Both the position numbers and the translations under genes were made by a program. A model generated the notes under the pieces. That model was given only the letters and a program-made list of their open reading frames with translations, was not told where the DNA came from and did not search any database. From a virus (taxonomy: Duplodnaviria; Heunggongvirae; Uroviricota; Caudoviricetes): 64,000 nucleotides of DNA. Below, in pieces: positions 1 to 47,371 of the stretch (its first letter is position 1; the number at the start of each line of letters is the position of its first letter). The stretch is from IMG/VR virus record IMGVR_UViG_2778261571_000004. One strand, written 5' to 3'.

Positions 1-185
1 ATTATTTATTTAGGGAACACCTTCGACGATCTCGCTTTTATTTCTAGGACTTTCATCCCTGCAGAAAATTTAAAAAAAACACTTGCAATCTTTTTTCACG
101 TATTGATAATTGAACTCGTCGAAAGCGAGCTGGCTAACGACAGTAAAAAATAAATTCATTTTAATTTTTCGTAAGGATGTCCATC

Positions 186-836
186 ATGGCTAACATTATC
201 ATTTCTAAAAAATCCATCATTGAAGCTGCTGCCATTGTATCCGACGAGCTGCGCGAAAAAGCAGATCTGGCAACTCAAACATATAACGAACATTATAAAA
301 ATGGTACGCACACCAAAGCAGACAAAGCAAATATGCAAGCTGCGACCACTAAACTTGCTTACTTCATCAACAACGTCGTAAACGCAGTAGAAGACGAAAA
401 ATTATGCTCTGTTTTCTACTATGCGATTAAAGCAAGCAAACAAGCGCCAGAAGTATTTTTCCGTGATGCAATGACTAATAGTTATTCTCTGGAAAAACTG
501 GTCTATCTGGTCAAATCAATTAAAGCTGGTAAATGCGTTTATTCCATCGCTGATATGTCAGGATCTCGTGTATTCGCTTTAATCGATATGATTAACGACG
601 AGATCGACACGTTCACCAATGGCGCTGTTTTCGATTTAATGAATGAAGCGAAAAAAGCGTGTGAAATTAAATTGGACGCTGGCTATACTCAAGCCAACCA
701 GTTGATCAATCTTTGCGAACGTCTTGGACTTGTTGAAAAAGTCAAAGGAGCTGGGAGCGCGAAAGCTGGTACTCAGCAATATCGCTTTATTAAAAATGAT
801 TTCTATAACTATCTGGCTGATGCTTTCAAAGCGTAA
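186..836 (+). CDS. hypothetical protein (track ORF 177..836; second ATG has better SD spacing)
   Basis: Long ORF; AAGGA about 7 nt upstream of ATG at 186; followed by hairpin terminator. No recognisable family. Confidence 0.5.
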   Translation: MANIIISKKSIIEAAAIVSDELREKADLATQTYNEHYKNGTHTKADKANMQAATTKLAYFINNVVNAVEDEKLCSVFYYAIKASKQAPEVFFRDAMTNSYSLEKLVYLVKSIKAGKCVYSIADMSGSRVFALIDMINDEIDTFTNGAVFDLMNEAKKACEIKLDAGYTQANQLINLCERLGLVEKVKGAGSAKAGTQQYRFIKNDFYNYLADAFKA

Positions 837-845
837 TTAATGGAA

Positions 846-868
846 TCTTGCGCCCACTATGGGCGCTT
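846..868 (+). terminator. rho-independent terminator hairpin (gcgcccactatgggcgc + T-run), approximate
   Basis: GC stem-loop followed by T-run directly after stop of 186..836; same hairpin sequence recurs at about 1121..1146. Confidence 0.5.
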
Positions 869-883
869 TTAAGGAGCTTAATC

Positions 884-1114
884 ATGTTTATTCTTATCGC
901 TGGCGTTAACGTGCGCAATGAATATTTTGTTAATCGCATCGCTGGGATCGCTGGTTACGCTGGGCGCGCAGTCGAGTTCATAAATGAAACAACGCGAAAA
1001 ATTGACTTATTGAACGACCAGGAGCGAAAAAAAGCAGACGTGAATGACGCTGATATATTTTTAATGTTAAAAGCGTTTGTAGAAATGGGATTTAAAATCA
1101 GTTTACACAAATAA
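884..1114 (+). CDS. small hypothetical protein (76 aa from internal ATG of track ORF 848..1114)
   Basis: AAGGAG SD 6-7 nt upstream of ATG at 884 (Met13 of track ORF); terminator copy downstream. Confidence 0.4.
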   Translation: MFILIAGVNVRNEYFVNRIAGIAGYAGRAVEFINETTRKIDLLNDQERKKADVNDADIFLMLKAFVEMGFKISLHK

Positions 1115-1118
1115 AATC

Positions 1119-1146
1119 GAGCGCCCACTATGGGCGCTTTTTTCGT
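1119..1146 (+). terminator. rho-independent terminator, second copy of the same hairpin, approximate
   Basis: gcgcccactatgggcgc followed by tttttt. Confidence 0.5.
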
Positions 1147-1456
1147 TTCCAATACTCCCACCATAACGCGCCAATGATGGCGCTTTTTTATTGTCTTTGA
1201 CTCACTCCAACAACATAAAAATAAGCGCCAAAATAACGCCATAGACGCGCTTTTATATCCTTGTCAGTACATACCCATTACTTAACACATTAACGCGCTT
1301 AAAACGCGTTATATTGCGCTATAGAGTATGGTTAATCATTGGCTTTTAGTCTTGCTATGTGATCCGCGTTTATTTGTCGGCGCGGATCGGCTCTTTGTGT
1401 TGTTTTGTATCCGCTCGCGTATTATGTGCGCGTGATTTTTCACATAATCACACCAC

Positions 1457-1472
1457 TTAATCACATATGTGA
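1457..1472. promoter_or_regulatory. perfect 16-bp palindrome AATCACATATGTGATT in intergenic region (candidate operator), approximate
   Basis: Read directly; lies in a 585-bp ORF-free region with further inverted repeats (gatccgcg...cgcggatc). Confidence 0.35.
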
Positions 1473-1564
1473 TTACGCTACGAAAGAAATCTGGATGTCT
1501 CAGGCGACGAAAGTCATCATAATTTTCCCCGCTCACCTGTCCGACAACCGCTGGTTGGATTCCA

Positions 1565-1640
1565 CCAGCTTCCCGATGTTTTTTCTACATAAAGGCGAAT
1601 GCAGCCGTTTCCCGAAAAAATCCTGGCCGTTCCCCCGTCG
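1565..1640. repeat. direct repeats of motif AGCCGTTTCCCGAAAA-like (about 3 copies), approximate
   Basis: Same unit as the 6-copy array at about 5569..5700. Confidence 0.4.
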
Positions 1641-1730
1641 GCTCATGAATACGTTCCTCGCCGCTTCTGAAAATTTCCCTGCGGCAGCTGGTGGCTATAG
1701 AGAAAGGGCCGTTTCTGGCCCTCTTCTCAG

Positions 1731-2213
1731 TTACACGCCATCAAGGATGTGGATGCGGTTGCTTGCGTATACATTCAGCATAAAGTTAGCGCAAAACAGT
1801 TTCCATGTATCAACGCCAGCGGTATACGTAATGTTTTTGCATTTAATCGCATTGTTGGCGATCCGCATCCCCTGCGATACTGCTTCATCGTCGGAAAATT
1901 TGAACGACGATTGAGTTTTAATCCAGACAGAAATCTGCGTAGCGAACTCAATCAGCTTGGACTGGCAGAATCGCCCGGAGCGCACCGGAAAGACGAACGT
2001 TCCGAATCCAGAATTTACCACATACGCTTTCTCAAATACCCGCGAGTAACGACGATTGCAAATGATGTCGCGTGCAATAATGCATTTTTCTTGTGCTGAC
2101 AGTTCTACCGTCTCATTGTCGCGCCATGCACCAAGTACTCGTTTTTCAATGTCAGAGAACGTTACAGCGATATTGCCATGTGCGGGTGCGTTTACAGTAG
2201 CGATAAAATTCAT
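1731..2213 (-). CDS. hypothetical protein
   Basis: 160-aa ORF with AAGGA SD; motif-1 palindrome just upstream. Confidence 0.5.
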   Translation of the reverse strand: MNFIATVNAPAHGNIAVTFSDIEKRVLGAWRDNETVELSAQEKCIIARDIICNRRYSRVFEKAYVVNSGFGTFVFPVRSGRFCQSKLIEFATQISVWIKTQSSFKFSDDEAVSQGMRIANNAIKCKNITYTAGVDTWKLFCANFMLNVYASNRIHILDGV

Positions 2214-2232
2214 GATTAATTCCTTATCGTAA

Positions 2233-2249
2233 ATAACAAATTGTTTTCT
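2233..2249 (-). promoter_or_regulatory. motif-1 palindrome (AACAAATTGTTTT) upstream of 1731..2213, approximate
   Basis: Member of recurrent AAACAA-N-TTGTTT family; TTGACG-17-TAATTA sigma70-like elements lie just upstream in transcript sense. Confidence 0.45.
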
Positions 2250-2299
2250 TGTTGGTGTTAATTATCGTTGTACGAATAAGGCGTCAAAGTAGAAAGTTA

Positions 2300-2360
2300 C
2301 GGTAGCCGGACGGGAACAGGTGGGTTTGTCGGTTGCCTGGAGGTAAGAGGTTGGTGTTTT
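2300..2360. repeat. about 62-bp element shared with 6308..6370 (cggtagcc...aagaggttggtgtttt), approximate
   Basis: Two loci align over about 60 nt with an internal tandem half-repeat. Confidence 0.4.
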
Positions 2361-2418
2361 TAGCCTGCGGTAAACAGGATGGTCATTTAAGGCCACCAGC
2401 GTAAACTGGTGGCGTTTG

Positions 2419-3117
2419 TCATGCTGGAATCATATCTAATTGAAAAGATTCCATTATATATGTTGGTTCATCGATGTAGTCCTTCAGCCTATTGTCAAAT
2501 GACTCAAGCGGATTGTGTGGCGGATGATACCAGTCCGAGTATTCATTTAAAAAATGACCCATTATCAGTTCGATACCCACCTTTACTCCTGCAACTCCGA
2601 ACCATGCATTGTGCGTTAGTTGCTGGGCGTCTGTATCCAGTACGCGAATGCCATCAACAAGCTTTATTAGATTCCTGTGGTTTTCGTGTACTGTAACCTC
2701 TCCGCTGGTTAAGTCTATTTCAGCGAGAAAATATGGTCTTTTGCTTCCGTCGGACTTTTTGAAATGACAGTCATAAGCGACAGCAAACCACGCTTTACTA
2801 AAGTCTTTGTTGGCGTAAGTGGTACACATGCAACTAGGATAATCATCAATGTTAAACCAATCAGGAAGCGGATCATCTTTAGACGAGCCAGCAAAATCAT
2901 CAGCTAGTTTGTAGTTAATGTCTGGGTTGTACTTGCTGACAAAATCATCCACATCCTCTACATCCTCAACACCTTTCCAAACTTTACATTTCTCCGACCA
3001 AAAGAATCTCGCAATATCCGAAATGACTGGGAAACGTTTTTCAATTGAATTTATCAACTCTGCATGTTCTTTAAGAGATTTACGCTTGTTGATAAGCTTC
3101 TGAAGATGCGTACTCAT
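2419..3117 (-). CDS. hypothetical protein
   Basis: 232-aa ORF, GAGGA SD upstream of ATG. Confidence 0.55.
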   Translation of the reverse strand: MSTHLQKLINKRKSLKEHAELINSIEKRFPVISDIARFFWSEKCKVWKGVEDVEDVDDFVSKYNPDINYKLADDFAGSSKDDPLPDWFNIDDYPSCMCTTYANKDFSKAWFAVAYDCHFKKSDGSKRPYFLAEIDLTSGEVTVHENHRNLIKLVDGIRVLDTDAQQLTHNAWFGVAGVKVGIELIMGHFLNEYSDWYHPPHNPLESFDNRLKDYIDEPTYIMESFQLDMIPA

Positions 3118-3400
3118 TTTTAATTCCTCGTTTGTTTTCGATGTGATAATTATCGCTGAATGAAATAGGCTAAAAAGAAGATTTATAAGGCTACTATCTG
3201 GAAGTAAGGCAAAGTGTTGTCATTTAAGGCCACCAATGCTGATGGCCTTAATAATTATCGCCCGATTACGCTAAGGATCTTTTCCTCAACTGATTTGTTG
3301 TTGCGACTAAACTGCCTTGCGTATCTGATGACAGAAGAGGCGTTTCGCTTTCTGACCATCTCGGCTCTTTCCTTCAGGCGTTTCTTGAAATCGCCCATAT

Positions 3401-3775
3401 TTACCACCAGGCGCAAAACGTCAGTCTGTTATTGTGAAAGTCGTGGTTCTTAATCAGGTCTTCCACAAGCTCTTTCAACTCCCCCACATCATGCCAGTAA
3501 CCTTCATCGTACTCCTGACTGCCGAAGAAAAAACCTTCCCGGGTAGGCAAGTACTCTTCGCAATTACTTTCGTTTATGTGCATCAAATGAGCCTTCAGAA
3601 AACAAATGTCATTCATCGTTAATTCTAAAAGCTCACAATTTTCGACTTCACCTACGTTGCGCTCCATCCACCCAACGAGCGCATTGAACTTACGGAAGTA
3701 AGCAACCCGCTTTCTGGATGCCTCATTATTCAGATCGTTTTTTGGCTGCGTCTCGATGTAGATATCAAGTCCCAT
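3401..3775 (-). CDS. hypothetical protein (start moved to Met15 of track ORF 3401..3817)
   Basis: AAGGAAA SD precedes Met15; the track start is a GTG without SD. Confidence 0.45.
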   Translation of the reverse strand: MGLDIYIETQPKNDLNNEASRKRVAYFRKFNALVGWMERNVGEVENCELLELTMNDICFLKAHLMHINESNCEEYLPTREGFFFGSQEYDEGYWHDVGELKELVEDLIKNHDFHNNRLTFCAWW

Positions 3776-3858
3776 GATGGTTTCCTTATTAAGTTGCTTC
3801 AGTGAAATCATTTTCACAAATCAGATAAGGCAGAAAACAAATTGTTATCGGGCATAAT

Positions 3859-3883
3859 AAAATGGCGCGGTTTGCGCGCCATT
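3859..3883 (-). terminator. hairpin terminator (aaatggcgcg..cgcgccattt) after gene 3893..4288, approximate
   Basis: 10-bp GC-rich stem followed by T-rich run in minus sense. Confidence 0.5.
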
Positions 3884-3892
3884 TAAAGAGGA

Positions 3893-4288
3893 TTAAGCGA
3901 ATACGCTTTCAGGGATTAAGGTGTCGGCAGGAATGCCAGAGGTAATGCGCAGACCGTACTGGCCAATCCAGGTGGTGCTGGTGTTCAGGCTGGAGGCGAA
4001 TACGGTGTTAACCATATTCATCATGGTTTCAAACACCTCTTCATCAACCTGGCGGAAGTAGTTCTCGATTTTCAGCAGCAGCGGGTCAGTTGCATCGAGA
4101 ATGGACTGGTATTGAGTCGCGTACTCGCCGTCGGAGTCATCACCTTTACGCACGATCGTACTGGCCTGTACTTCGGCGCCAGTTTCGGTGTTGTACGTAA
4201 CAACGGTGATTTTTGCCACATTCTTACCTTCGGCGGTTTCAGAGGCATAGTAAACATCAACTGTCAGTTTTTCGCGTTTAATGGTCAT
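3893..4288 (-). CDS. hypothetical protein (start at Met23 of track ORF 3893..4354)
   Basis: GGAGAG SD before Met23; motif-2 palindrome and an upstream-gene terminator precede it. Confidence 0.5.
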   Translation of the reverse strand: MTIKREKLTVDVYYASETAEGKNVAKITVVTYNTETGAEVQASTIVRKGDDSDGEYATQYQSILDATDPLLLKIENYFRQVDEEVFETMMNMVNTVFASSLNTSTTWIGQYGLRITSGIPADTLIPESVFA

Positions 4289-4325
4289 TTCACTCTCCGT
4301 AGTGTATTGGTTATTTTTATATTCT

Positions 4326-4344
4326 ATGATCGTAAGTATGTACT
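4326..4344 (-). promoter_or_regulatory. motif-2 palindrome (GTAAGTA-tg-TACTTAC), approximate
   Basis: Inverted repeat between a terminator and the SD of gene 3893..4288. Confidence 0.4.
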
Positions 4345-4414
4345 TACAATACAAAAAAGCCCCGTAAGGATGGCGGGGCTGTCGTACGGTCGACTAATTA
4401 CCACTTGCACATTA

Positions 4415-4726
4415 TCAGGCTATTGCCATCACTGATGCTCTCTGAATCTCTTGCTGGGCCACGCGGTTAACTTCCATCAAAGCCAGTTCGAGCTGATGTT
4501 CCGGCCACATTCTTTGAAATGCCACCCAGCCTTTTCCACGCTGGCGACGAACATTCATTACATAACGAGTAAAGGTGTTTTTATCGAAAGACACCGCTGT
4601 TTCACGGAACAGACGAATAGAGGTTCCATTGGCAACGATGTCCAGCAAAGTTAATTGAGCAACCAGCGCAGGCTTCTCTTTTCTCTTCTGGTCTTTGTCC
4701 AGACCAAGAACCAATGATTTTTTCAT
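4415..4726 (-). CDS. hypothetical protein (start at Met17 of track ORF)
   Basis: GGAG SD before Met17; motif-1 palindrome about 12 nt upstream. Confidence 0.45.
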   Translation of the reverse strand: MKKSLVLGLDKDQKRKEKPALVAQLTLLDIVANGTSIRLFRETAVSFDKNTFTRYVMNVRRQRGKGWVAFQRMWPEHQLELALMEVNRVAQQEIQRASVMAIA

Positions 4727-4736
4727 CACAACTCCG

Positions 4737-4753
4737 TAAACAACTTGTTTTCT
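4737..4753 (-). promoter_or_regulatory. motif-1 palindrome (AAACAACTTGTTTTC), approximate
   Basis: Recurrent motif immediately 5' of SD. Confidence 0.45.
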
Positions 4754-4879
4754 CAATGGCGTAAATAATACCAATAAGAAAACGGCTACAAAGCATAATG
4801 ATCAGGTGCATGAGCGATATGCAGGTTCCTCCCTGCGGCTATAGAGAAATTAAGCCAGCAATGCTGGCTTTGGTTGGGA

Positions 4880-5209
4880 TTACGCGAATACCTCAAGAAA
4901 CTCCTGAACGTCCCAATGCTGGACGAGGTGAAGATAGACCTTAGAAATCACGTCATTTTCGCTATCGCATGTGAAGTAGTACTTCTGGCTGCGGTTGTAT
5001 GTGTCCACACAAAATTCGCTCATATCCATAAAGTCAGCATCTTCACCCATGTCGCAAATCATCAAAGCAGGTGCGTCATCACGAGTCATCAGCTCAAGCA
5101 CCCACCGCGAATTAATCAGAGTGGAAGACCAACCTTCTAACTCATAAAACTGATCAAACTCTTTTTGAGTTAATTTCTTAATTTGGTTGATGTCGATATT
5201 TGCAAACAT
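4880..5209 (-). CDS. hypothetical protein (start at Met8 of track ORF)
   Basis: AAGGAT SD before Met8; motif-1 about 13 nt upstream. Confidence 0.45.
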   Translation of the reverse strand: MFANIDINQIKKLTQKEFDQFYELEGWSSTLINSRWVLELMTRDDAPALMICDMGEDADFMDMSEFCVDTYNRSQKYYFTCDSENDVISKVYLHLVQHWDVQEFLEVFA

Positions 5210-5220
5210 AAAGCAATCCT

Positions 5221-5237
5221 TAAACAACATGTTTTCT
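5221..5237 (-). promoter_or_regulatory. motif-1 palindrome (AAACAACATGTTTTC), approximate
   Basis: Recurrent motif 5' of SD. Confidence 0.45.
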
Positions 5238-5568
5238 TGATGGTGTTATTATCGCAATAACGCAAAGGCGAAAAAGGATTTTATTCCGGTGAATGTGGTT
5301 TTGGCAGTGAGTTTTCAGGTTCAGTACCGAGTACACTTTTTACATTATTCTGATTTAGTGGCCGAAGGTGGCTGGTGGGCAGAATAATCATCTCCCCGAA
5401 AACCTACTGAAATCGATTGTGACCCGTTGGCTGTCTGGCACAATTACGCTGTAACTGGGCATTCAGAGGGAGTCCAACGGTAAGTTAGTCCGCCTACGTG
5501 AGCGCCTCTCTTCTTCCCGCACATTACAGGTGGATAGCCGCAACTCTCCCTCTCGCTATACCGGTACG

Positions 5569-5700
5569 CCGCCGTTCCTGAACCGGCATCGAGCCTTTTC
5601 CCGAAATCCACACAGGCAACTCGACCGTTTCCCTGAAAACCTCCAGCCGTTCCCCGAAGGCAACCCAGCCGTTTCTGTAGCGGGATGCAGCCTTTTCCCT
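5569..5700. repeat. array of 6 direct repeats (consensus about AGCCGTTTCCCGAAA) at 21-23 bp periodicity, approximate
   Basis: Units at about 5569, 5592, 5623, 5645, 5667, 5688; iteron-like helical phasing. Confidence 0.5.
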
Positions 5701-5849
5701 TATGGACCGGAGGCTGACCGTAGGGGTGTTACGGGGGATAAAATCAGGAGTTGAATAAATACGAAAAAGGAGGCGACACCCCTCCTTCCCTCCCCACTTA
5801 TACATACCTGTCTTGTTCGCTATACATGTTGTGTTTTCTTCGTGTTTTA

Positions 5850-6660
5850 TCTGTCTCAACCTCTCTATAGGCGTTAATGCTCACTCCTTCCAGAACGTTC
5901 TATACGGCGACTAATTCTGTTGGTGAATTGGGTGTGTTGTTCTCTCTGTCGGTGTAAATGGTTTCGTTCGTTTTGCGGTGGTTCTTCTATGGGGTGTTCT
6001 CGTCGTTTTGGTGATTGTTCTTCTCCGTCTATGGAGTAATGGCAGGTGGGCGATTGCTTTCGTTATTGTGTTTGAGTTGTTTGTCTGGAGTGTGTGAAAG
6101 GCTTTTGTAGTTATTCGTGTATTGGGTAATGGCGTTTCCCGTGATTGTTATGTTTCGTGTCTTTTGGGGTTGAGAGAAACCTTGCGGTAACAGGCTTCGT
6201 TGGGGTTTCAGTGATTCTGGTGTTTCTTCGCTGTTTGGGGAATGGCGTGTCGTGGGTATCGCGCGTATGAATGTTTTCGGATTGCCTGTGAAAGTTAGGT
6301 TGGTTGTCCGGTAGCCTGGGAAGAAGAGGTGGGTCTTTTCGGTAGCCTGCCATAAAGAGGTTGGTTGTTTTGGGGAATGGCATATGTGTTATTTAGTTGT
6401 TTTGTTATGCCTGAAAATAAGTTGTTTATATGGTTGTGTAACGCAATGGGAGTGATTTTGAGCGTGTGTTTTTGTTGGTAGTGTGTTGGTCGTCTGTGGT
6501 GAAAATTGGACGCTGTGGCGCTGTCTGCTGCGTAGAATTACGGGTATAAGCAGTGATGTGTGAAAACGTCAATTTTTTAGACCAAATCGGGTGAAAGCGT
6601 TGATGTTTCGTTGATCTGTTATTCAGTTGTTTCCTTGATTGTATAAACAACTATAACTTA
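5850..6660. other. G+T-rich, strand-asymmetric non-coding region with short repeats
   Basis: No credible ORF on either strand; plus strand is strongly G/T-biased; contains the 62-bp element at about 6308..6370. Confidence 0.45.
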
Positions 6661-6781
6661 TTGATATTTAAGGGTGTGATTGCAGGTATGGAAGGAGAGT
6701 AGTGGCGATCAACGGATTCTTATAGAAAAGAATCAAATTGTGACCGCCATTATCAACTGATTGATTTGTTTACTTGTGTAG

Positions 6782-7180
6782 TCAGTTCTCGAAATGAATA
6801 GGGTCAACGTAATGCCGCTCACCGCTTTTACCATTACACAGCACTGTAACTTTCGCCTTTTCACTCCAGGCTGAGTATAGAAAGTTCCCATCAGGTTGAA
6901 CATGGTAACGAGAGAAGTAAACATCGCCGACTGAGGCGTCGAACATGTTCCTATCTTTTTCACTTTGGGCAAGCGAGATGGATATCACCGAATTCCCATT
7001 TGGGGAAACGATTTTAAATTTATTCCCTATATCCATAACAATATTGTAACCAGGTAATTGCTTGTGTGTTTCCGGATCTATTTTCATGCATCGTGGGTAC
7101 ACGATAGTGTTAGGCTCTTCAACTGGCGTGGCATTAGCAGAAAGCACAAAAAATATTAGTGCCAATGGTGCATATTTCAT
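6782..7180 (-). CDS. predicted secreted/periplasmic protein (N-terminal signal peptide)
   Basis: N-terminus MKYAPLALIFFVLSANA is signal-peptide-like; GAGGGA SD. Confidence 0.5.
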   Translation of the reverse strand: MKYAPLALIFFVLSANATPVEEPNTIVYPRCMKIDPETHKQLPGYNIVMDIGNKFKIVSPNGNSVISISLAQSEKDRNMFDASVGDVYFSRYHVQPDGNFLYSAWSEKAKVTVLCNGKSGERHYVDPIHFEN

Positions 7181-7474
7181 TTATCCCTCACAATTTCCAA
7201 TTTTCCAGACCATCGTCTATTTCAGCGTCAGGGTGGAATTGTACCGCATCAAATCCTACATCGAGCACCTTTCGAATGTTCTTGATGGTTTGCTATGTGA
7301 CACCGTAATCACGCAGCTTTTCTTCCCTCCCCTGACTCCCCCATACTCCGTTTCTGTACCCAATTGAGTCCGAGATCGTATGGTGCTCGAAACAGATATT
7401 TGGTAGACACTCAGAGTCATGCTGTGTAACGAGGGTAGGGCTACTAACTGTCGTCTTATACAATTTGGTGAGTT

Positions 7475-7723
7475 TCAGCATTTTACCACCCCGTTCGGAA
7501 ACAACTCATTCGCCGTAGTTGATATAACCTCCCAATTAACGCCGACATCAGCGTTATGGCATTGTCTGATTTTTTGCATCACCTGTACGCATTGTTCATC
7601 AGTGAGATCTGTCCTTACTTCAGCAATATCTTCTTTGTGCCACATAACCATGAGTAAGGGTTCGTCTTCTGGATAGTTTTTCAGTTTCTCGATGATTTCT
7701 TTTGCTGTTCCAAACATCTTCAT
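7475..7723 (-). CDS. hypothetical protein
   Basis: 82-aa ORF, GGAG SD, two motif-1 palindromes upstream. Confidence 0.5.
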   Translation of the reverse strand: MKMFGTAKEIIEKLKNYPEDEPLLMVMWHKEDIAEVRTDLTDEQCVQVMQKIRQCHNADVGVNWEVISTTANELFPNGVVKC

Positions 7724-7727
7724 CTCC

Positions 7728-7744
7728 TAAACAATTTGTTTTCT
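7728..7744 (-). promoter_or_regulatory. motif-1 palindrome (AAACAATTTGTTTTC) abutting the SD, approximate
   Basis: Second copy about 50 nt further upstream (7777..7795), flanking a TTGTTG-17-TATAAG sigma70-like promoter. Confidence 0.45.
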
Positions 7745-7776
7745 TATATGGCTTATTATCTCAATCAACAAAAGGT

Positions 7777-7795
7777 AGAAAACAAATTGTTTTAG
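7777..7795 (-). promoter_or_regulatory. motif-1 palindrome, upstream copy, approximate
   Basis: gaaaacaaattgtttt. Confidence 0.45.
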
Positions 7796-7831
7796 GGCTT
7801 GTGTAAATCAGGAGGGATTGTGTCTATATGA

Positions 7832-7858
7832 AAATGCCCAGCGTATTGCTGGGCATTG
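7832..7858 (-). terminator. metG rho-independent terminator hairpin (gcccagc..gctgggc), approximate
   Basis: Stem-loop followed by T-rich tract immediately after the metG stop. Confidence 0.55.
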
Positions 7859-7876
7859 TGAAGAATGGTTGCTTAA

Positions 7877-9910
7877 TTACTTAACCTGGTGGCCAGGTTT
7901 AGCACCGACATCCGGGCTTAACAGGAAGATATCTTTCCCGCCAGGGCCAGCAGCCATCACCATGCCTTCGGAGATACCGAAGCGCATTTTACGCGGAGCC
8001 AGGTTAGCCACCATAATGGTGTGACGACCAATCAGTGCCTGTGGGTCTGGATAAGCAGAACGGATGCCTGAGAAGACATTGCGTTTTTCACCGCCGAGAT
8101 CCAGTGTCAGACGCAGCAGCTTGTCAGAACCTTCAACAAACTCTGCGTTTTCGATCAGCGCCACGCGCAGGTCAACTTTGGCGAAGTCGTCAAAGGTGAT
8201 GGTTTCCTGAATCGGGTCGTCAGCCAGTGGGCCAGTTACCGGTGCGGCTGTGGCTTTCACTTCTTCTTTGGATGCTTCCACCAGTGCTTCCACCTGTTTC
8301 ATATCGATACGGTTATACAGTGCCTTGAACGGATTCACTTTATGGCCCAGCAGCGGTTGCTGGATACCATCCCAGGTCAGTTCTGTATTCAGGAATGCTT
8401 CTGCACGTTCAGTCAGTTTCGGCAGTACCGGCTTCAGGTACGTCATCAGCACGCGGAACAGGTTAATGCCCATAGAGCAAATCGCCTGCAGATCGGCATC
8501 GCGTCCTTCCTGCTTCGCCACCACCCACGGAGCCTGTTCATCGACATAGCGGTTAGCCAGGTCAGCCAATGCCATGATTTCACGGATAGCTTTACCAAAT
8601 TCGCGGCTTTCCCATGCTTCGCCAATCACTTCAGCGGCATCAGTAAAGGTTTTGTACAGTTGCGGGTCAGCCAGTTCGTTTGCCAGCACGCCGTCAAAAC
8701 GCTTGTTGATAAAGCCTGCATTACGGGAGGCCAGGTTAACCACTTTGTTCACGATATCGGCATTCACGCGCTGAACGAAATCCTCCAGGTTGAGATCGAT
8801 ATCATCAATGCGCGAAGAGAGTTTCGCAGTGTAGTAGTAACGCAGGCTGTCAGCGTCAAAATGATTCAGCCAGGTGCTGGCTTTAATAAAGGTGCCGCGA
8901 GACTTGGACATCTTCGCGCCGTTCACCGTCACATAGCCATGAACAAACAGGTTGGTCGGCTTGCGGAAGTTGCTGCCTTCCAGCATGGCAGGCCAGAACA
9001 GGCTGTGGAAGTAAACGATATCTTTACCGATGAAGTGGTACAGCTCGGCGGTGGAGTCTTTCTTCCAGTATTCATCGAAGCTGGTGGTATCGCCGCGCTT
9101 GTCGCACAGATTCTTGAAGGAACCCATGTAGCCAATCGGCGCGTCCAGCCAGACGTAGAAATATTTGCCCGGCGCGTCCGGAATTTCAAAACCGAAGTAA
9201 GGCGCATCGCGGGAGATATCCCACTGTTGCAGGCCAGATTCAAACCACTCCTGCATTTTGTTTGCCACCTGCTCCTGCAACGCGCCGCTGCGGGTCCATG
9301 CCTGCAACATTTCGCTGAAAGAAGGCAGATCAAAGAAGAAGTGTTCGGAATCACGCATTACCGGGGTAGCGCCAGAAACCACCGATTTCGGCTCGATCAA
9401 TTCAGTCGGGCTATATGTTGCGCCGCAGACTTCACAGTTATCGCCGTATTGATCTGGCGCTTTACATTTCGGGCAGGTGCCTTTTACAAAACGATCCGGC
9501 AGGAACATGCCTTTTTCCGGGTCGTACAACTGAGAGATAGTGCGGTTTTTAATAAAACCGTTCTCTTTCAGGCGAGTATAGATAAGCTCAGACAACTGAC
9601 GGTTCTCTTCGCTGTGCGTCGAGTGATAGTTGTCATAGCTGATGTTAAAGCCTGCGAAATCAGTCTGGTGTTCCTGACTCATTTCGCCAATCATCTGTTC
9701 CGGTGTGATACCAAGCTGCTGTGCTTTCAGCATGATCGGCGTACCGTGGGCATCGTCGGCACAGATGAAATTAACCTCGTGGCCGCGCATTCGCTGGTAA
9801 CGAACCCAGACATCAGCCTGGATGTGCTCCAGCATATGGCCGAGGTGGATTGAGCCGTTAGCGTACGGCAGCGCGCACGTCACCAGAATTTTCTTCGCGA
9901 CTTGGGTCAT
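7877..9910 (-). CDS. metG: methionine--tRNA ligase
   Basis: 677-aa product from Met44 of the track ORF; near-identical over its length to enterobacterial MetG as I recall it (HLGH and KMSKS class-I motifs, CPKC..CEVCG zinc knuckles). Confidence 0.95.
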
Positions 9911-10067
9911 AGTAGGCATTACTTCTTTGTAGTGAAAAGGGGCTTGATAGTAACAAAATGGCCTTATGTCTGCCATGTGATAACAGCATTTCTCATAAAT
10001 GATTAAATGTCGTAGCTGGAGTACACTACAAGGCGACAATTGCGCAAATTAAAATAAAGGAGACGGG

Positions 10068-40164: not shown

Positions 40165-40363
40165 ATGTCATTTTTCTGTGATTGTTAGCCGAGGCAACGA
40201 TAACCCACCAGGTGCGCCGAAGGTAGTAAATGCCTGTTTTAATTATTCACATATCCACAGGATAGATCCTAATAAAGAGATCCATAGATAGATCCTTGTA
40301 TAGATCAAATAAGATCCCCGATCGCTGTAAGCCGCGCCACGACTGGTCTGAAGCCATGTTCAT

Positions 40364-40467
40364 GTATGCTGCCAGCGGTAATTGATAGTCTGTCAACGGT
40401 TCGCCGTATGCTGCCAACTGTTTTTGGTATGCTGCCAGCGGCAAATCAAGTATGCTGTCAGCGGTTG
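40364..40467. repeat. iterons upstream of rep (about 5 copies of GTATGCTGYCAGCGGT-like 16-mer), approximate
   Basis: Direct repeats read in sequence. Confidence 0.7.
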
Positions 40468-40485
40468 AATGACAAAGGTGTCCAC

Positions 40486-41580
40486 ATGTCCACAAAAAAT
40501 AAAAAAGGTAAAAATAACAAAGAAGTAGAAGATAATCTCGACAACTTTGAAGAAGGCTCCCTTGAATTGTACACAGGGGAACTTGTCCCTAATAGCAACA
40601 ATACAGTCCAACCAATTGCGTTGATGCGGCTGGGGTTGTTCGTGCCCACGCTCAAGGGTACAAAATACAGCAAGCGTAACAAGCCAAATGAGATTGATGC
40701 TTCAAAGGAGCTTGTTCAGCTCGAAGTAGCCCGTTCTGAAGGCTATTCCGATATCAAGATAACCGGTCCTCGTCTCGACATGGATCATGATTTCAAAACG
40801 TGGGTGGGCGTTGTGCGTTCGCTGGCAGAATACGGCGAACCTAACGGTCGTGTCGAGTTAAGCATCACGAAATTTGCGAAGTTTTGTGGCTATCCATCGT
40901 CACAGATCCGCAAAACACTCCGCGACCGGCTTACAAACAGTCTTTTGAAGATCATGCGTACAACTCTGTCTTTCCAGAGAACGTATGAAGAAAAGAACGT
41001 CGACGGCTCTAACAAGATCTCGCTTCTGATGGTGCACCTCATCAATAGCGTGGACTACAACGAGCAGAAAGATACGGTGGTGTTCTATGCAGAACCGAAG
41101 CTGGCCGAACTATATCGCTTTGACCATAAGGTTCTTTTGCAGTTAAAGGTTATCAATAAGCTACCACGCAAAGAAACAGCACAGGCTCTGTACACCTTCA
41201 TCGAAAGTCTTCCAACCAAGCCTGCGCCGGTATCGCTTGCTCGATTGCGTGCGCGACTCAATTTGAGTAGCAGGAATGTCAGCTCGCAGAATCAGACTAT
41301 ACGCAACGGCTTAAAAGCTCTCCAAGATTTGGGTTATCTCGAATACAGCGAGATTAAGCGTGGGCGGTCGATCTATATCCAGATTCACAGCCGCAATCCA
41401 AAACTCAAAGTCGCACCGCCAAAACCTGAAGACATCGAACCCAAAAAACCAGATGAGAAAGCCGGGGAAATTGATGCCAAACAGAACATTATCAATAAGA
41501 TAACCGAACTTTCGCAGAATTTGACGCCTGAAAATATCAAGATGATTGAGATCCTTTCCAATAGTCTCAAACTGCTTTGA
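40486..41580 (+). CDS. replication initiator protein (iteron-binding Rep)
   Basis: Gene flanked on both sides by iteron arrays; AAGGTG SD before Met41 of the track ORF; basic protein. Confidence 0.65.
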   Translation: MSTKNKKGKNNKEVEDNLDNFEEGSLELYTGELVPNSNNTVQPIALMRLGLFVPTLKGTKYSKRNKPNEIDASKELVQLEVARSEGYSDIKITGPRLDMDHDFKTWVGVVRSLAEYGEPNGRVELSITKFAKFCGYPSSQIRKTLRDRLTNSLLKIMRTTLSFQRTYEEKNVDGSNKISLLMVHLINSVDYNEQKDTVVFYAEPKLAELYRFDHKVLLQLKVINKLPRKETAQALYTFIESLPTKPAPVSLARLRARLNLSSRNVSSQNQTIRNGLKALQDLGYLEYSEIKRGRSIYIQIHSRNPKLKVAPPKPEDIEPKKPDEKAGEIDAKQNIINKITELSQNLTPENIKMIEILSNSLKLL

Positions 41581-42112
41581 TATGCTGTCAGCGGTGAAAT
41601 GTATGCTATCAGCGGCTATTTTTCTGAAAAGTATGCTGTGAACGGTTAAAGATATGCTACCAGCGGTATAGTGAGATAAACGTATGCTGTGAGCGGTAAA
41701 TCATCTATCACCACTCAATGCTCTTTTATACCTCCCCAGTGGTTACTAACCTCGAAGAGTGCATTCCATATAGGTTTGCGCTCACTAACATTCTATTCCC
41801 ATTGCGCTGATTACTTGTAGTGAAAGGTATTTATTGCCTGCTGCTCCCTGATAGAACGTATGCTGTCAGCGGTGTTTTATTGAGGAATTTTTGTTTGGAT
41901 ATGCTATCAGCGGTAATTAATGGCATATGTCAGACCTTCGTATGCTGCCAGCGGTAATTTTGTTCTGGTTATACCCATACCGGTACACATTATTCATGCA
42001 ATGTCTTAAGTATGCTGTCAGCGGTAAAAAATCGAGTAAAGTATGCTGTGAGCGGTGAGATAGACTCTCGATATGCTATCAGCGGCAGTTGATTGTGTAT
42101 GCTGTCAGCGGT
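41581..42112. repeat. iterons downstream of rep (about 13 copies in two clusters separated by an AT-rich segment), approximate
   Basis: tatgctgtcagcggt and variants at about 41581, 41601, 41631, 41652, 41682, 41858, 41899, 41940, 42010, 42040, 42071, 42097. Confidence 0.7.
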
Positions 42113-42159
42113 GACGACTATGAAATATGACTGCGGAACGTGCCGCAGTCAGTTTGCAT

Positions 42160-43758: not shown

Positions 43759-46098
43759 TTACTCTTCTACTGACTCGGTGGGGGTATCTTTTGCTCTCCG
43801 GTCATCGATTGCCTGCAAAGCCGCAATGATTTCAGCCAGTGGCTTCTCCCGATACATCTCGACGATCTGCGATTTGGTGTATTTCTTGTCACCAATTTCA
43901 ACTCGCCCGCTGGCGTTCTTTGGCAGGTATCCTTCTTCCAGCATGTACTCGACGAGCGATTCGATAACGTCGAGGCCACGAGTAGGATCGAAGTAGAATT
44001 TCCAGGTGCATTTGCCATACGGTGGTGCAACTTTGTTTTTGATGCATTCTGCGCCTACGTCCTGGCCGATCTTCTCTTTACCATCCTTCATCACCGATGC
44101 ACCAAGACGGATACGTACAGAAGCGTAGAACTTCGGTGAATCTCCACCTGGCGACGTAGTAGGGTCGCCAAACATTACACCGATTTTTGTGCGAACCTGA
44201 TTCAAGAAGATGATGCAGGCGTTGTATTTGCGTGCCCACAAAGCCAGAGTAGGGAAGTTCGCACTCGTCGCACGAGCCAGTGCCGTATTGTCGTTCATGT
44301 TTAGCTGATCTTTGTCTTTGGCTGTGCCTTCAGCCATCTTTTCGAACTTCTCGGCTTTGGAGTTCGGAACCATAGACGCAAGAGAGTCAGCCACGATACA
44401 GATAGGTGCTGATTCGGGGATAAGCTCTTCATCACGAACCAATTTAAGTATTGTGCCGATCAACTCTACAGAGTCTTCGAAGGTATCTGGCTGCTTGTAT
44501 ACCCACTGACCGTCATCCTCATCTGCGTTCAGGCCATTGGCTACAGCCAGGCCAACGTCAAAACTGTTTTCATGATCGAGGAATACCGCCAGACCATCTT
44601 GTTTTTGAGCGGAGATCATCGCTGCTGTTGCAAGGAATGTGTTGTGGCTGATAATCCCGTTAGACCAGAAAGAGTGTGTTTCCGGCATCGCTACGTCGAA
44701 CGTTGGTGCTTCACCTTCCTCAATAGCCACGACTTCGTCGTAGAACAAGTTAGAGCCAATTACCGCTGCCAGTTGTGCAAACAGATGCTCGTTAAAACGA
44801 TTCTTTCTGCCAATGAAGGAGACATAGATTTCTCGCAGTTTGTCTATTCCGACACGATCGCCGCGGCCAATAACGTGGTCTACCAGAGCGTAGTCTTCAC
44901 GGGTGGTCTTGGTGAGCGACTCGTAGAGTGATTTCACTAAGCCGCTGATGTGCGGAACATAGCCTGAGTAAGTGCGGTCAAAACCAATGTCCCGTTTGGT
45001 TGCCACTGATAAACGTGCCGGAGATTCGAAACCAATCGTTGACAGAAAAAGGTCGTAATTAGAGCCACTGAATGACAGCCGGTAATATGTATTTTCATAA
45101 CCCGCGACGTGTTTTTCAGAGATAGTTGACGTAATCCCCAGATTCAGGAGCATGAGGCGAATTTGCTGTAGCAGCAGCCCACTCGCGCTCACAACCTCAA
45201 TGCAGCGACCATCATTGACGTGGCATTCCAGCTCAAAGTAGCCGCGAAGGAATGCAATTTGAGCCTCGCTATTGGCGCGACGCACACTCAACGGAACCTG
45301 CTTGCCAGCAGCTTTCTCATACTCCAGACCATATTCTTTAAAAAGCAGCGAACGCACCTCTTTGCTAAACAGCACATGGTCTTCCGAGCCGTTATGTTTT
45401 CTCGTAACTGGCATCTTGTCTGATACCAGCGAAATGAGGCGGTAGTACTCATCCTTGATGAAAGGATCTGTGTTAGAAAAATTCACTGAATTTTCAGAGG
45501 CCACGTATCCGTCAGCAATTAAATAGCCCATCAGTTTTGCGATATTGGCATCCAGGTGCTGATCGCCGAATTGATGTGTGCCAACCATTGAAGGAATCGT
45601 GTCGCCTACACTGATTTTTTCAGCATGTCGCCAGACGACATTACCTAAGTCGTCAACCACACGGATTGGGTGACGGAACGTAGCCTCGATATAACCGCCT
45701 GATGCCAGCTTAATACGCTTGAATTTGCGACGGTTGTTCCATGTCAGGTGTGAGGTCTTCTCTATCACGCCATTTTCATTGATGAGTCCAACGTTATGCT
45801 CTACATCGCGAGTAGTGCATGTCGCTTTGTACCCTTCAATCTCAAACAACTCTTTCACTGTTACCATTCCACGCTCCGTCAGCAGCATGGTGTCTGCGGT
45901 AACACATTTCCCCGCGCTTGGTGGCCCGAATACTTCTACGATACGACCACATGGGAAACCGCCATCGTAACGACCGGAAATAGCTTTGTTTAACGGAGGA
46001 AAGCCTGTGTCAATCCAATGAGTTACTTTCTGAATTTCGTCGTTGCTACCGATTTTCTTTTTCAGAGCAAGTGCCAGTGCGGATTTTCCTTTTGCCAT
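43759..46098 (-). CDS. RecA-family recombinase interrupted by an in-frame intein
   Basis: N-extein ...GRIVEVFGPPSAGK (Walker A) then Cys; C-extein resumes TFLATAAM...; exteins total 357 aa, RecA-sized. Confidence 0.8.
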   Translation of the reverse strand: MAKGKSALALALKKKIGSNDEIQKVTHWIDTGFPPLNKAISGRYDGGFPCGRIVEVFGPPSAGKCVTADTMLLTERGMVTVKELFEIEGYKATCTTRDVEHNVGLINENGVIEKTSHLTWNNRRKFKRIKLASGGYIEATFRHPIRVVDDLGNVVWRHAEKISVGDTIPSMVGTHQFGDQHLDANIAKLMGYLIADGYVASENSVNFSNTDPFIKDEYYRLISLVSDKMPVTRKHNGSEDHVLFSKEVRSLLFKEYGLEYEKAAGKQVPLSVRRANSEAQIAFLRGYFELECHVNDGRCIEVVSASGLLLQQIRLMLLNLGITSTISEKHVAGYENTYYRLSFSGSNYDLFLSTIGFESPARLSVATKRDIGFDRTYSGYVPHISGLVKSLYESLTKTTREDYALVDHVIGRGDRVGIDKLREIYVSFIGRKNRFNEHLFAQLAAVIGSNLFYDEVVAIEEGEAPTFDVAMPETHSFWSNGIISHNTFLATAAMISAQKQDGLAVFLDHENSFDVGLAVANGLNADEDDGQWVYKQPDTFEDSVELIGTILKLVRDEELIPESAPICIVADSLASMVPNSKAEKFEKMAEGTAKDKDQLNMNDNTALARATSANFPTLALWARKYNACIIFLNQVRTKIGVMFGDPTTSPGGDSPKFYASVRIRLGASVMKDGKEKIGQDVGAECIKNKVAPPYGKCTWKFYFDPTRGLDVIESLVEYMLEEGYLPKNASGRVEIGDKKYTKSQIVEMYREKPLAEIIAALQAIDDRRAKDTPTESVEE
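44641..45906 (-). mobile_element. intein (about 422 aa) with LAGLIDADG homing-endonuclease domain inside the recA-like P-loop
   Basis: Starts CVTADTMLL, ends ...ISHN followed by Thr+1; LMGYLIADGYV and FLRGYFELECHV LAGLIDADG-type motifs; coordinates from residue counting. Confidence 0.7.
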
Positions 46099-46100
46099 GA

Positions 46101-46367
46101 TCAGGCTCCTTTTGTTTCGTTGATTCGTTTTAAAGCGGCGGATTCGTCGAATACAATCGCATCGTGATTAAGGAGTCTGGATACACGAGCGAGGATTTTT
46201 ACGACCTGCTCGCTGACTAATCCAAACTCGCGATCTGTCGCTTTCATTCCGGCAGCGCCTAGAATTGACGGCAGTGCGATGACAGCGTACTCACCGTGAT
46301 AAAAGACAATCTCTTTTGCCAGTTGGGTGGGGGTGGTTGTAGCGCCATTAATAATCGATTTAAGCAT
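46101..46367 (-). CDS. small hypothetical protein (start at Met3 of track ORF)
   Basis: TAATG coupling with upstream FEN gene. Confidence 0.4.
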   Translation of the reverse strand: MLKSIINGATTTPTQLAKEIVFYHGEYAVIALPSILGAAGMKATDREFGLVSEQVVKILARVSRLLNHDAIVFDESAALKRINETKGA

Positions 46368-47311: not shown

Positions 47312-47371
47312 CGGTACATTCCTTCCAAAAAGTAAGGCGTCCGTAGACGCCTTACTGGTCACGTAATGGGA

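Follow-up and report, generated by a model that had tools for sequence, protein, structure and literature searches.

What is a stretch of about 1.57 kb without a gene doing at the border between the accessory island and the early genes of a phage-plasmid? The question is raised by the virus record IMGVR_UViG_2778261571_000004 (Caudoviricetes), of which 64,000 nucleotides were analysed (hereafter the window) and in which positions 5210-6781 form such a gene-free stretch. A preliminary description of the sequence had set its left edge at 5231 and had connected its repeats with a centromere, an origin or a packaging site, and its strand-biased part with a long non-coding RNA. The analysis reported here identifies a conserved, non-coding, cis-acting boundary region of SSU5/pHCM2-type phage-plasmids. 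As to its function, we tentatively favour, with clearly less than even confidence, a putative barrier to leftward transcription, in which an untranslated C/A-rich RNA would load Rho and, together with an intrinsic terminator, would shield a repeat array and the early genes.

A conserved region without genes

The window represents an SSU5/pHCM2-type phage-plasmid with 97% identity to Cyrano, the phage of Escherichia coli LF82 and identical with the phage-plasmid pLF82 of that strain. The gene-free region is 96-98% identical to Cyrano, PhiR41_1 and approximately 190 non-mobilizable E. coli plasmids (~110 kb), and full-length copies of 65-73% identity occupy the same position in Salmonella phage SSU5, S. 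Typhi pHCM2 and the phage-plasmids of Klebsiella, Enterobacter and Cronobacter. It matches 833 PLSDB records and is syntenic, of equal length and free of coding sequences (CDS) in at least 258 plasmids and SSU5-family phages. It sits precisely where the frequently exchanged accessory island, expressed in lysogeny, meets the conserved early genes, a place at which insulation would be of use. To the right lies the variable accessory island (metG, apbC, a type I restriction-modification (R-M) system and others), followed by the replication genes; to the left, approximately 13 kb off, lie the structural and terminase genes, a distance that lends no support to the packaging site first suggested. 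The genes flanking the region are all on the minus strand, i.e. transcribed leftward, and the neighbouring proteins have no Pfam match and fall into PHROG families without assigned function.

The region first outlined from 5231 is real, but its true left border falls at 5210. The adjacent gene most probably begins with the ATG at 5209, a codon served by an AAGGA ribosome-binding site and yielding a length of 330 nt, equal to that of the homologue annotated by the Prokaryotic Genome Annotation Pipeline (PGAP). Between these borders there is indeed no credible open reading frame (ORF). A coding region is ruled out by the missing 3-nt periodicity (z = -0.9 vs 7.1 and 3.4 in neighbouring genes) and the missing conserved ORF, as no ORF of the window is retained full-length in divergent relatives. 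Most PGAP records annotate no CDS here, and the two hypothetical proteins annotated in Cyrano and PhiR41_1 are regarded as artefacts, the C/A-rich strand being poor in stop codons. An ATG-led ORF of 90 aa (6111-6383), downstream of an operator copy at 6415, is not conserved. A known structured RNA family was likewise rejected: Rfam gave no match at E <= 1 (1-10000) or at E <= 10 (5200-6800), minimum free energy z-scores are -1.43 (minus strand) and +0.38 (plus strand), and RNAalifold consensus energies are near 0 in sliding windows on either strand. Any RNA made from the region would be unstructured. Tandem Repeats Finder returned no tandem repeats at score 30, the repeats being dispersed and degenerate, and no description of the region was found in Rfam, database annotations or the literature searched.

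Homologues were aligned in a set of 12 and then of 45 non-redundant loci, a scan of IMG/VR for the invariant motif GGCGATCAACGNNNTCTTATAG having supplied the extra loci. Relatives of the SSU5 and pKpn types are approximately 66-67% identical overall, with many blocks above 90% (5624-33, 5726-5805, 5895-6050, 6120-40, 6235-47, 6306-65, 6396-6470, 6540-6640 and 6700-60), while in four flanking orthologous genes the identity of third codon positions to these relatives is no more than 50-55%. The region is more conserved than these positions, and much of it must therefore be under purifying selection. This comparison bears on the possibility that the region is decayed, functionless DNA, such as a pseudogene remnant or a recombination scar. 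In its left third, parts (5280-5560 and 5800-5890) show little conservation and have been exchanged for other sequence in the pHCM2-type lineage, as decay would allow, but length, module order and the blocks above 90% have been kept in the face of such divergent third codon positions, and no lineage examined lacks the region, not even a 51.6-kb deletion derivative. Decay is accordingly very improbable. Apparent natural deletion variants, seen as partial matches, proved to be full-length but divergent copies.

The K. pneumoniae plasmid pC51_001 (IncFIB/IncHI1B, 217 kb; locus L007, 5600-6470) contains only the right-hand 470 bp, skew included. Here the sequence is joined to DUF262 and a type I R-M module as in Klebsiella phage-plasmids, and lies 2.4 kb from psiA. 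It is a captured fragment and, by its arrangement, evidence of module exchange between phage-plasmids and large plasmids with a breakpoint inside the region. The psiA-adjacent match had also brought up a role as a leading-region or single-stranded DNA promoter, which was rejected since only the right-hand 470 bp had been captured, together with DUF262 and the type I R-M module.

Leftward transcription and the skewed body

The part of the region nearest the accessory island is strongly biased in composition. The G/T-rich stretch originally placed at 5850-6650 was readily recovered, and its skews (GC skew +0.27 to +0.50 and AT skew -0.25 to -0.51 over ~5850-6750) are the most extreme of the 64 kb. 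Across lineages, GC skew is 0.28-0.41 and AT skew -0.34 to -0.40, and the length of the body is conserved at 771-852 nt. The bias persists at variable columns (G 0.31 vs C 0.20; T 0.32 vs A 0.17) and in lineage-specific insertions (G 0.42 vs C 0.11), and the main exchange pair is G<->T, found at 149 variable columns and thus equal to each transition class, vs A<->C at 26. The persistence of the skew and the G<->T exchange suggest a constraint on the composition of one strand, i.e. on a single-stranded nucleic acid. A hypothetical leftward transcript of the body would consist of approximately 33% C, 38% A and 12% G, with no conserved fold. Minus-sense segments of 100 nt with C >= 30% and G <= 14% number 37 in the 64 kb, 21 of them at 5901-6481, so that nowhere else in the window is minus-sense RNA as C-rich and G-poor as here. 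In being untranslated, C-rich, G-poor, unstructured and downstream of a stop codon, it would have the composition of a Rho-dependent terminator.

Two hairpins frame this body. The first in the leftward direction (6704-6748) lies 34 nt past the stop codon of the upstream minus-strand gene 6782-7180, and its minus-strand fold is the more stable in SSU5-type (-17.4 vs -12.0) and pKpn-type (-13.2 vs -10.0) relatives but is not favoured in the window type (-19.1 vs -21.0). The second (5790-5764) forms 10 pairs on the minus strand followed by TTTTTCGTATTTATT, and a terminator scan matched it on that strand only. In 29 of 29 variants its minus fold is more stable than its plus fold (e.g. -20.1 vs -9.7 kcal/mol) because G-U pairs become C-A mismatches on the other strand. 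With a G+C-rich hairpin and a U tract, it is a predicted intrinsic terminator.

Expression data from lysogens are available for Cyrano, as RNA sequencing (RNA-seq) of LF82 has been re-analysed with Cyrano as reference, giving gene-level values (S1 Table) for which strand-specificity is not stated and which are possibly unstranded (Misson et al., PMC9928086). CYRAN_102, immediately upstream in the leftward sense and listed as a 'moron' at 6 times background, has 50-64 normalised counts in lysogeny broth (LB) and log2(fpkm+5) up to 9.2, a maximum of about 590 FPKM (PMC9928086). CYRAN_103, which corresponds to window 6298-6654 in the skewed body, has a log2(fpkm+5) of 2.32 in LB, equal to 0 fragments per kilobase per million reads (FPKM), and a maximum of 4.27 in any sample; CYRAN_104, corresponding to window 5404-5808 and the repeat array, has 11-17 (PMC9928086). 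With CYRAN_102 high and CYRAN_103 at 0, transcription from the accessory gene accordingly stops at the hairpin at 6704-6748 or shortly beyond it, and the skewed body is silent in lysogeny.

These features can be joined in a transcription barrier. In leftward order, the hairpin after the stop codon of the last accessory-island gene would be followed by approximately 750 nt of C/A-rich RNA, the U-tract hairpin, the array of six or seven putative binding sites and the repressor-controlled promoter of the next early gene. Transcripts of the lysogeny-expressed accessory genes, and those from weak internal promoters, would lose their ribosomes at the stop codon; Rho would then load on the unstructured C-rich RNA and terminate transcription, and exonucleases would trim the RNA back to the protective hairpin, which lacks a U tract. 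RNA polymerase that escaped would be halted at the back-up intrinsic terminator, and the outcome would be a repeat array and repressed early genes kept free of read-through. From the anatomy, conservation, composition, hairpin strand asymmetry and RNA-seq drop we infer both the involvement of Rho and insulation as the purpose.

Besides the composition of the RNA and the fall to 0 FPKM past the hairpin, the barrier is favoured by a miniature of the same layout at 2265-2416. This small cluster comes after another variable gene and presents a stop codon, a hairpin without a U tract, a C-rich spacer and the next promoter in turn. Its hairpin (2393-2416) abuts the stop codon of the gene 2419-3117, a layout matching the right end of the main region, and it accounts for three of the C-rich, G-poor minus-sense segments (at 2241-2281). 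Moreover, both repeat arrays of the element sit directly past leftward terminators.

Several points weigh against this interpretation. A Rho terminator requires C-rich RNA of ~100 nt, as against a conserved 750 nt here, and insulation alone does not account for the dispersed motifs, the internal operator or a conserved block at 6540-6646. The RNA-seq signal is already gone by 6654, so transcription either stops short of the body or crosses it only transiently; strand-specificity of the published counts is moreover uncertain, and dependence on Rho is putative. Furthermore, the skew at variable columns could be partly inherited from decayed G/T-rich repeats rather than selected. At the back-up terminator, the U tract is weak in SSU5-type relatives, and covariation across the hairpin is weak in general (term -0.28, one compensatory pair). 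The barrier is put forward with reserve because it leaves three features without explanation: the specific repeated motifs, the internal operator and the conservation of a 750-nt length.

The motifs in question (Table 1) are distinctive. The ~25-nt motif, which ends in GTAATGGC, occurs four times in the window and six or seven times in relatives. Its copies share a single orientation; their cores are conserved at >=0.9, and their spacings of 41-142 nt are not helically phased. The tandem ~30-bp units belong to the element of about 62 bp that had been reported as shared with 2300-2360, and the sharing is well founded: 2317-2383 aligns with 6296-6365 at a local score of 54 vs 16.3 +/- 2.4 for shuffled sequences (repeat families D3/D5/D8), and both unit clusters are highly conserved in relatives. 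The operator copy at 6415 has no recognisable -10 and no gene. The block at 6540-6646 holds three CGTTGAY/GTCAAY sites, a degenerate operator/promoter copy (6616-6646) and a candidate leftward promoter, consisting of an A tract, TTGACG (6572-6567), 17 nt and TTATAC (6549-6544). In 34 of the 45 relatives this candidate is present with an invariant 17-nt spacing and a variable spacer sequence, but its -10 is non-canonical, being without the usual final T, and its status as a promoter is uncertain.

Such features would fit a non-coding RNA gene of the lytic cycle under repressor control. Once the repressor was lifted, a leftward transcript of approximately 0.65-0.9 kb would start near 6537, or at operator-linked elements at ~6440 or ~6640, and end at the terminator 5790-5764. 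With its GCCAUUAC-type motifs (four to seven) and ACCCACCUCUU-type motifs (two or three), it would serve in trans as a decoy or sponge, either for G/U-rich small RNAs or for a factor that binds single-stranded RNA, most obviously Rho. The conserved length, repeated motifs and internal operator agree with this, as does a layout like that of neighbouring units, with operator/promoter-like elements, a body of constant length and a minus-strand terminator; direct, conserved motifs that are not helically phased suit RNA better than wrapped DNA, and silence in lysogeny fits repressor control. On the other hand, there is no canonical -10, the candidate having C where T is nearly invariant and the 6415 element having none, and an RNA of this kind would itself be an excellent substrate for Rho and exonucleases. 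A sponge for the distal face of Hfq was rejected in particular, as A-R-N and A-A-N runs are not enriched. We consider a lytic RNA rather unlikely. On the long non-coding RNA proposed at the outset, the findings point both ways: there is no Rfam match, conserved fold or canonical promoter and lysogenic expression of the skewed body is ~0 FPKM, whereas minus-stable terminator-like hairpins with an internal operator leave room for a leftward transcript made in the lytic cycle only. A more specific suggestion, to which we give a small chance, is that on induction an unstructured C/A-rich RNA of ~0.75 kb titrates Rho or another host factor binding single-stranded RNA and so reprogrammes transcription of host and phage, or serves as the pre-primer of an RNA-primed lytic origin beside the iteron array. 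We know of no described bacterial or phage counterpart to an RNA of this composition.

Table 1. Features of the gene-free region and of related sequences elsewhere in the window.
Feature	Position	Strand	Remarks
Array 2, AGCCGTTTCCC units	1565..1694	+	1603-1613, 1625-1635, weaker third 1659-1669
Small G+T-skewed cluster, three ~30-bp units	2265..2416		Mean column identity 83%, divergent relatives
Promoter and operator of leftward gene 4880-5209	5217..5275	-	-10 GATAAT 5253-5248; palindrome AAACAACATGTTT 5222-5234
Chi octamer GCTGGTGG	5371..5378	+	Exact match
Candidate rightward sigma-70 promoter	5417..5444	+	TTGTGA, 16 nt, TGgCACAAT (extended -10)
Array 1, six direct repeats, core AGCCKTTTCCC	5566..5700	+	Spacings 22, 31, 22, 22, 22 bp
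Conserved block GGCTGACCG...GTTACGGGGGAT...CTTGAATAAATACG	5711..5763		Conservation 0.75-0.99 across 45 relatives
Predicted leftward intrinsic terminator, polypurine/polypyrimidine arms and U tract	5764..5790	-	Just before array 1
G+T-skewed body, ~750 bp	5880..6650		Skew kept in every relative
Direct-repeat motif TTCTCCGYnTATGGRGTAATGGC, copy 1	6019..6043	+	Further copies end 6133, 6246, 6381
Two tandem ~30-bp units CGGTAGCCTG-N6-AGAGGTKGGT-TTTT	6306..6366	+	Homologous to three units at 2297-2388
Regulon operator copy	6396..6450	-	Palindrome 6415-6427 (perfect AAACAAnTTGTTT in relatives), half-site, promoter-like flanks
~100-bp highly conserved block	6540..6646		Conservation mostly 0.9-1.0
Two-part hairpin/inverted repeat GGCGATCA...TGACCGCC around GATTCTT-ATAGA-AAGAATC	6704..6748	-	Conserved; invariant TCTTATAG centre

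Other possible identities were considered for the region, most of which found no support. Intrinsic bending is not indicated, as T tracts in the body show no significant 10-11 bp periodicity; no G-quadruplex motifs were found, and instead of a Chi-like cluster the body has one single-mismatch variant only. The operon polarity suppressor (ops) element of RfaH (GGCGGTAGnnTG) was rejected because the repeats read yyCGGTAGCCTG, with the first two G absent and the core alone matching, and there are no plus-strand genes downstream. As to a Xer or tyrosine-recombinase resolution site, GGTGCGCAGGA-TTACGG-GTATAAGAAGT resembles only the XerC arm of dif, and no conserved match to Tus Ter, matS, KOPS or dif was seen in the region by eye against consensus sequences. 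A site shared with the integrase was also dismissed as a chance match: TCTTATAG recurs upstream of the integrase (60136) and is absent there in a Cronobacter relative. Separately, an invariant 8-bp inverted pair, GGTATAAG, reads outward at 5797-5803 (-) and 6544-6550 (+), approximately 747 bp apart, and brackets the skewed body; it has no target-site duplication, and no relative shows the inverted orientation.

Repeat arrays, operators and Chi sites

Beyond the back-up terminator, the region carries the array that first suggested an origin or centromere. Six repeats at spacings of 21-23 bp had been described, and their number and phasing are borne out, although one spacing is 31 bp. The cores lie at 5571-5580, 5592-5602, 5623-5633, 5645-5655, 5667-5677 and 5689-5699, with an outlying copy at ~5392-5405, and the stretch has an 11-nt periodicity (z = 3.1). 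In relatives the cores are conserved and the spacers variable, and exact 22-nt unit deletions occur in two of them (L002 and L011), so that the repeats are conserved in related elements apart from insertions and deletions of whole units. Gains and losses of this kind are the behaviour expected of a putative protein-binding DNA array, and we infer that the array binds a protein. Between it and the terminator, the block at 5711-5763 is one of three pieces still alignable with Klebsiella pKpn-type elements.

The same unit had been reported in three copies at 1565-1640, where two were found, with a weaker third slightly further on (Table 1). This second array is flanked by inverted Chi sites at 1562-1569 (-) and 1687-1694 (+), is 74-98% identical in relatives, and lies just downstream, in the leftward sense, of the terminator of the gene 1731-2213. 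Exactly two AGCCKTTTCCC clusters exist in the ~100 kb scanned; they have the same orientation, bracket the small-gene cluster 1731-5209, and both come immediately downstream of a leftward terminator. The second non-coding gap that holds array 2 (1115-1730, ~600 bp between convergent genes) has features of its own, namely twin terminators with near-identical stems (839-870 and 1110-1141) and a perfect 18-bp palindrome, TAATCACATATGTGATTA, at 1458-1475.

This paired arrangement raises the possibility that the arrays, and perhaps the dispersed motifs too, are protein-binding sites acting at the DNA level, either as a dispersed centromere like that of N15 or as paired sites for looping or silencing of the 4-kb early cluster. 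Two arrays in the same orientation on either side of the genes 1731-5209, each in a terminator-protected zone, with helical phasing and whole-unit changes, are what such sites would look like. A centromere beside its partition operon, which a parS-like site had implied, was nevertheless rejected, as the par-like ATPase locus is ~40 kb away in a homologous plasmid (L082 19657-20684) and the region upstream of its ATPase and small protein carries the regulon operator and none of the AGCCKTTTCCC repeats. No candidate binding protein appears among the neighbours, the genes between the arrays are not fully silent in lysogeny, and the skewed body is left unexplained. As an account of the region, such DNA-level sites are unlikely in our judgement.

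An origin was the other function first attached to the repeats. The plasmid origin of the element is elsewhere: RepA (Pfam Rep3_N) is encoded at 40366-41580, and at least 20 TATGCTGYCAGCGGT iterons at 40360-42130 flank and overlap the start of repA. These iterons are unrelated to AGCCKTTTCCC and 35 kb away, so that a Rep3/RepA iteron origin does not apply here. An iteron origin served by any other initiator finds no support either, as no A+T-rich unwinding element is present (GC 0.48-0.56 around the array). The sole candidate DnaA box near the array, AAATCCACA at ~5606, is not conserved, and a site resembling that of integration host factor (6749-6761) is 1 kb from the array.

An origin used in the lytic cycle is a separate matter. 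Transcription into the strand-asymmetric zone would prime replication or open the duplex beside an iteron array bound by a phage initiator, as likened to ColE1 RNA II, T4 oriF/oriG/oriE and lambda ori, with array 2 as an auxiliary site like P4 crr. In its favour are phased iterons distinct from those of RepA, another array at a distance of 4 kb, a hairpin and polypurine RNA tract at the array junction, and silence in lysogeny. The element also encodes T4-like replication and recombination proteins without a known origin, including a gp32-like single-stranded DNA-binding protein (SSB), a RecA/UvsX-like recombinase, a 5'-3' exonuclease, a UvsW-like helicase and a DnaB-like helicase and primase. 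However, there is no adjacent initiator gene, and the helicase/primase cluster, where an origin would be expected, is ~40 kb away; an A+T-rich unwinding element (GC is 45-56%), a conserved DnaA box and G-quadruplex motifs are all missing, and a keto (G+T) skew is wrong for RNA-DNA hybrids, which purine-rich RNA favours. A lytic origin is thus improbable, if conceivable. As a side observation, the RecA/UvsX-like gene (43759-46098, minus strand) is interrupted by an intein with a LAGLIDADG homing-endonuclease domain, and beside it lie the gp32-like SSB (47372-48400) and the 5'-3' exonuclease (46367-47362). The barrier, lytic RNA, origin and binding-site explanations are not mutually exclusive, and the arrays are putative protein-binding DNA sites in all of them.

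The left edge of the region is occupied by the promoter and operator of the next leftward gene, where columns 5231-5260 are 96% conserved in 12 relatives. The same order of a GATAAT-like hexamer, 13 nt, palindrome, ribosome-binding site and ATG precedes at least eight other minus-strand genes in the window. The palindrome AAACAAnTTGTTT has 14 copies in the window, nearly always following a GATAAT-like hexamer at 13 nt and directly preceding a minus-strand ribosome-binding site; its positions include 2234, 3835, 4738, 5222, 6415, 7729, 7780, 21308, 22037, 32258, 43696 and 58048, as well as 20720-20735 in L082. By its distribution, AAACAAnTTGTTT is a putative element-wide operator with a logic like that of the scattered P1 C1 operators, and its sites probably mark a master-repressor regulon. 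CYRAN_45 has been named a 'putative repressor' (PMC9928086). The top Cyrano locus in lysogeny is the 555-nt hypothetical CYRAN_43, beside the integrase and the putative repressor, at log2 11.5-14.9 and 723 times background (PMC9928086). It spans Cyrano 40268-40822, approximately 60.1-60.8 kb of the window by collinearity, where there is no plus-strand ORF of at least 150 aa, and it could be a non-coding RNA or a small gene.

The Chi octamer noted near 5371 is an exact match and is kept, within a variable stretch, in all relatives without the small ORF described below. Chi occurs in both orientations throughout the window (e.g. 1562, 1687, 2393, 5371, 9080 ... 63715), with 17 copies per 64 kb vs 1.45 expected from shuffles, an excess of ~12-fold, and 87 single-mismatch variants vs 37 expected. 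In its density of Chi the phage-plasmid equals the E. coli chromosome, and the copy at 5371 is not special in itself, Chi being frequent window-wide. Nearby, the candidate rightward promoter has kept its hexamers and 16-nt spacing in 30 of the 45 relatives while the spacer varies. In pHCM2-type and Cronobacter-type relatives (L009, L010, L011 and L014), a plus-strand ORF for an acidic protein of 80 aa (WP_016051703.1 / WP_000104663.1; e.g. L014 2105-2347) with a good ribosome-binding site replaces approximately 5280-5500 of the window, Chi and the candidate promoter included. In these lineages, rightward transcription towards the repeat array probably occurs, to judge from that ORF.

Known systems and wider meaning

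Rho-dependent terminators can carry an upstream protective stem-loop, an example being lambda tR1 with its Rho utilization (rut) sites. Like these, the region has a stop codon directly followed by RNA that is untranslated, unstructured, rich in C and poor in G, with a hairpin lacking a U tract ahead of it, and the steady-state RNA ends at this hairpin; it differs in its length (~750 vs ~100 nt), which is conserved, and in its repeat motifs, repressor operator and intrinsic back-up. As with P4 ori/crr, lambda ori and P1 oriR/incA, two clusters of the same repeat lie a few kb apart, phased and changing by whole units. Unlike P4 and iteron origins, the region lacks an initiator gene beside it and an A+T-rich unwinding element, and RepA, the known initiator of the element, has other iterons at a distance of 35 kb.

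Similarly, AAACAAnTTGTTT recurs at many promoters in the manner of P1 C1 operators, with copies at the left edge of the region and inside it, but differs from the asymmetric 17-mer of P1 in being a palindrome placed just past the -10, and its repressor is putative. The sponge RNAs CsrB/RsmZ and CrcZ also collect many copies of a short motif in one non-coding unit; those are abundant, with clear promoters and motifs in hairpin loops, in contrast to the absence of a conserved fold and the hypothetical RNA in the present case. Binding-site clusters away from the partition genes and among phage genes are known as the centromere sites of N15, but these are inverted repeats bound by SopB, while the present repeats are in direct orientation and showed no connection with the par-like locus. 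As such, the operator, terminators, rut-like RNA, iterons and Chi are known kinds of parts. Their assembly, the extreme 750-bp keto skew with conserved dispersed motifs, and the universal presence in the family have no description in the literature searched.

Phage-plasmids of the SSU5/pHCM2/pKpn type occur commonly in clinical E. coli, Klebsiella, Salmonella and Enterobacter, and they carry resistance and accessory genes in a variable island that begins right at this region. It is the largest conserved non-coding element near the island, and in databases it is either unannotated or covered by spurious ORF calls. If it proves to be a lytic RNA or a lytic origin, a missing step in the change from plasmid to phage replication would be filled in. 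As an insulator, it would account for the way in which frequently exchanged cargo expressed in lysogeny can sit beside repressed early lytic genes without switching them on, and would offer a portable barrier module.

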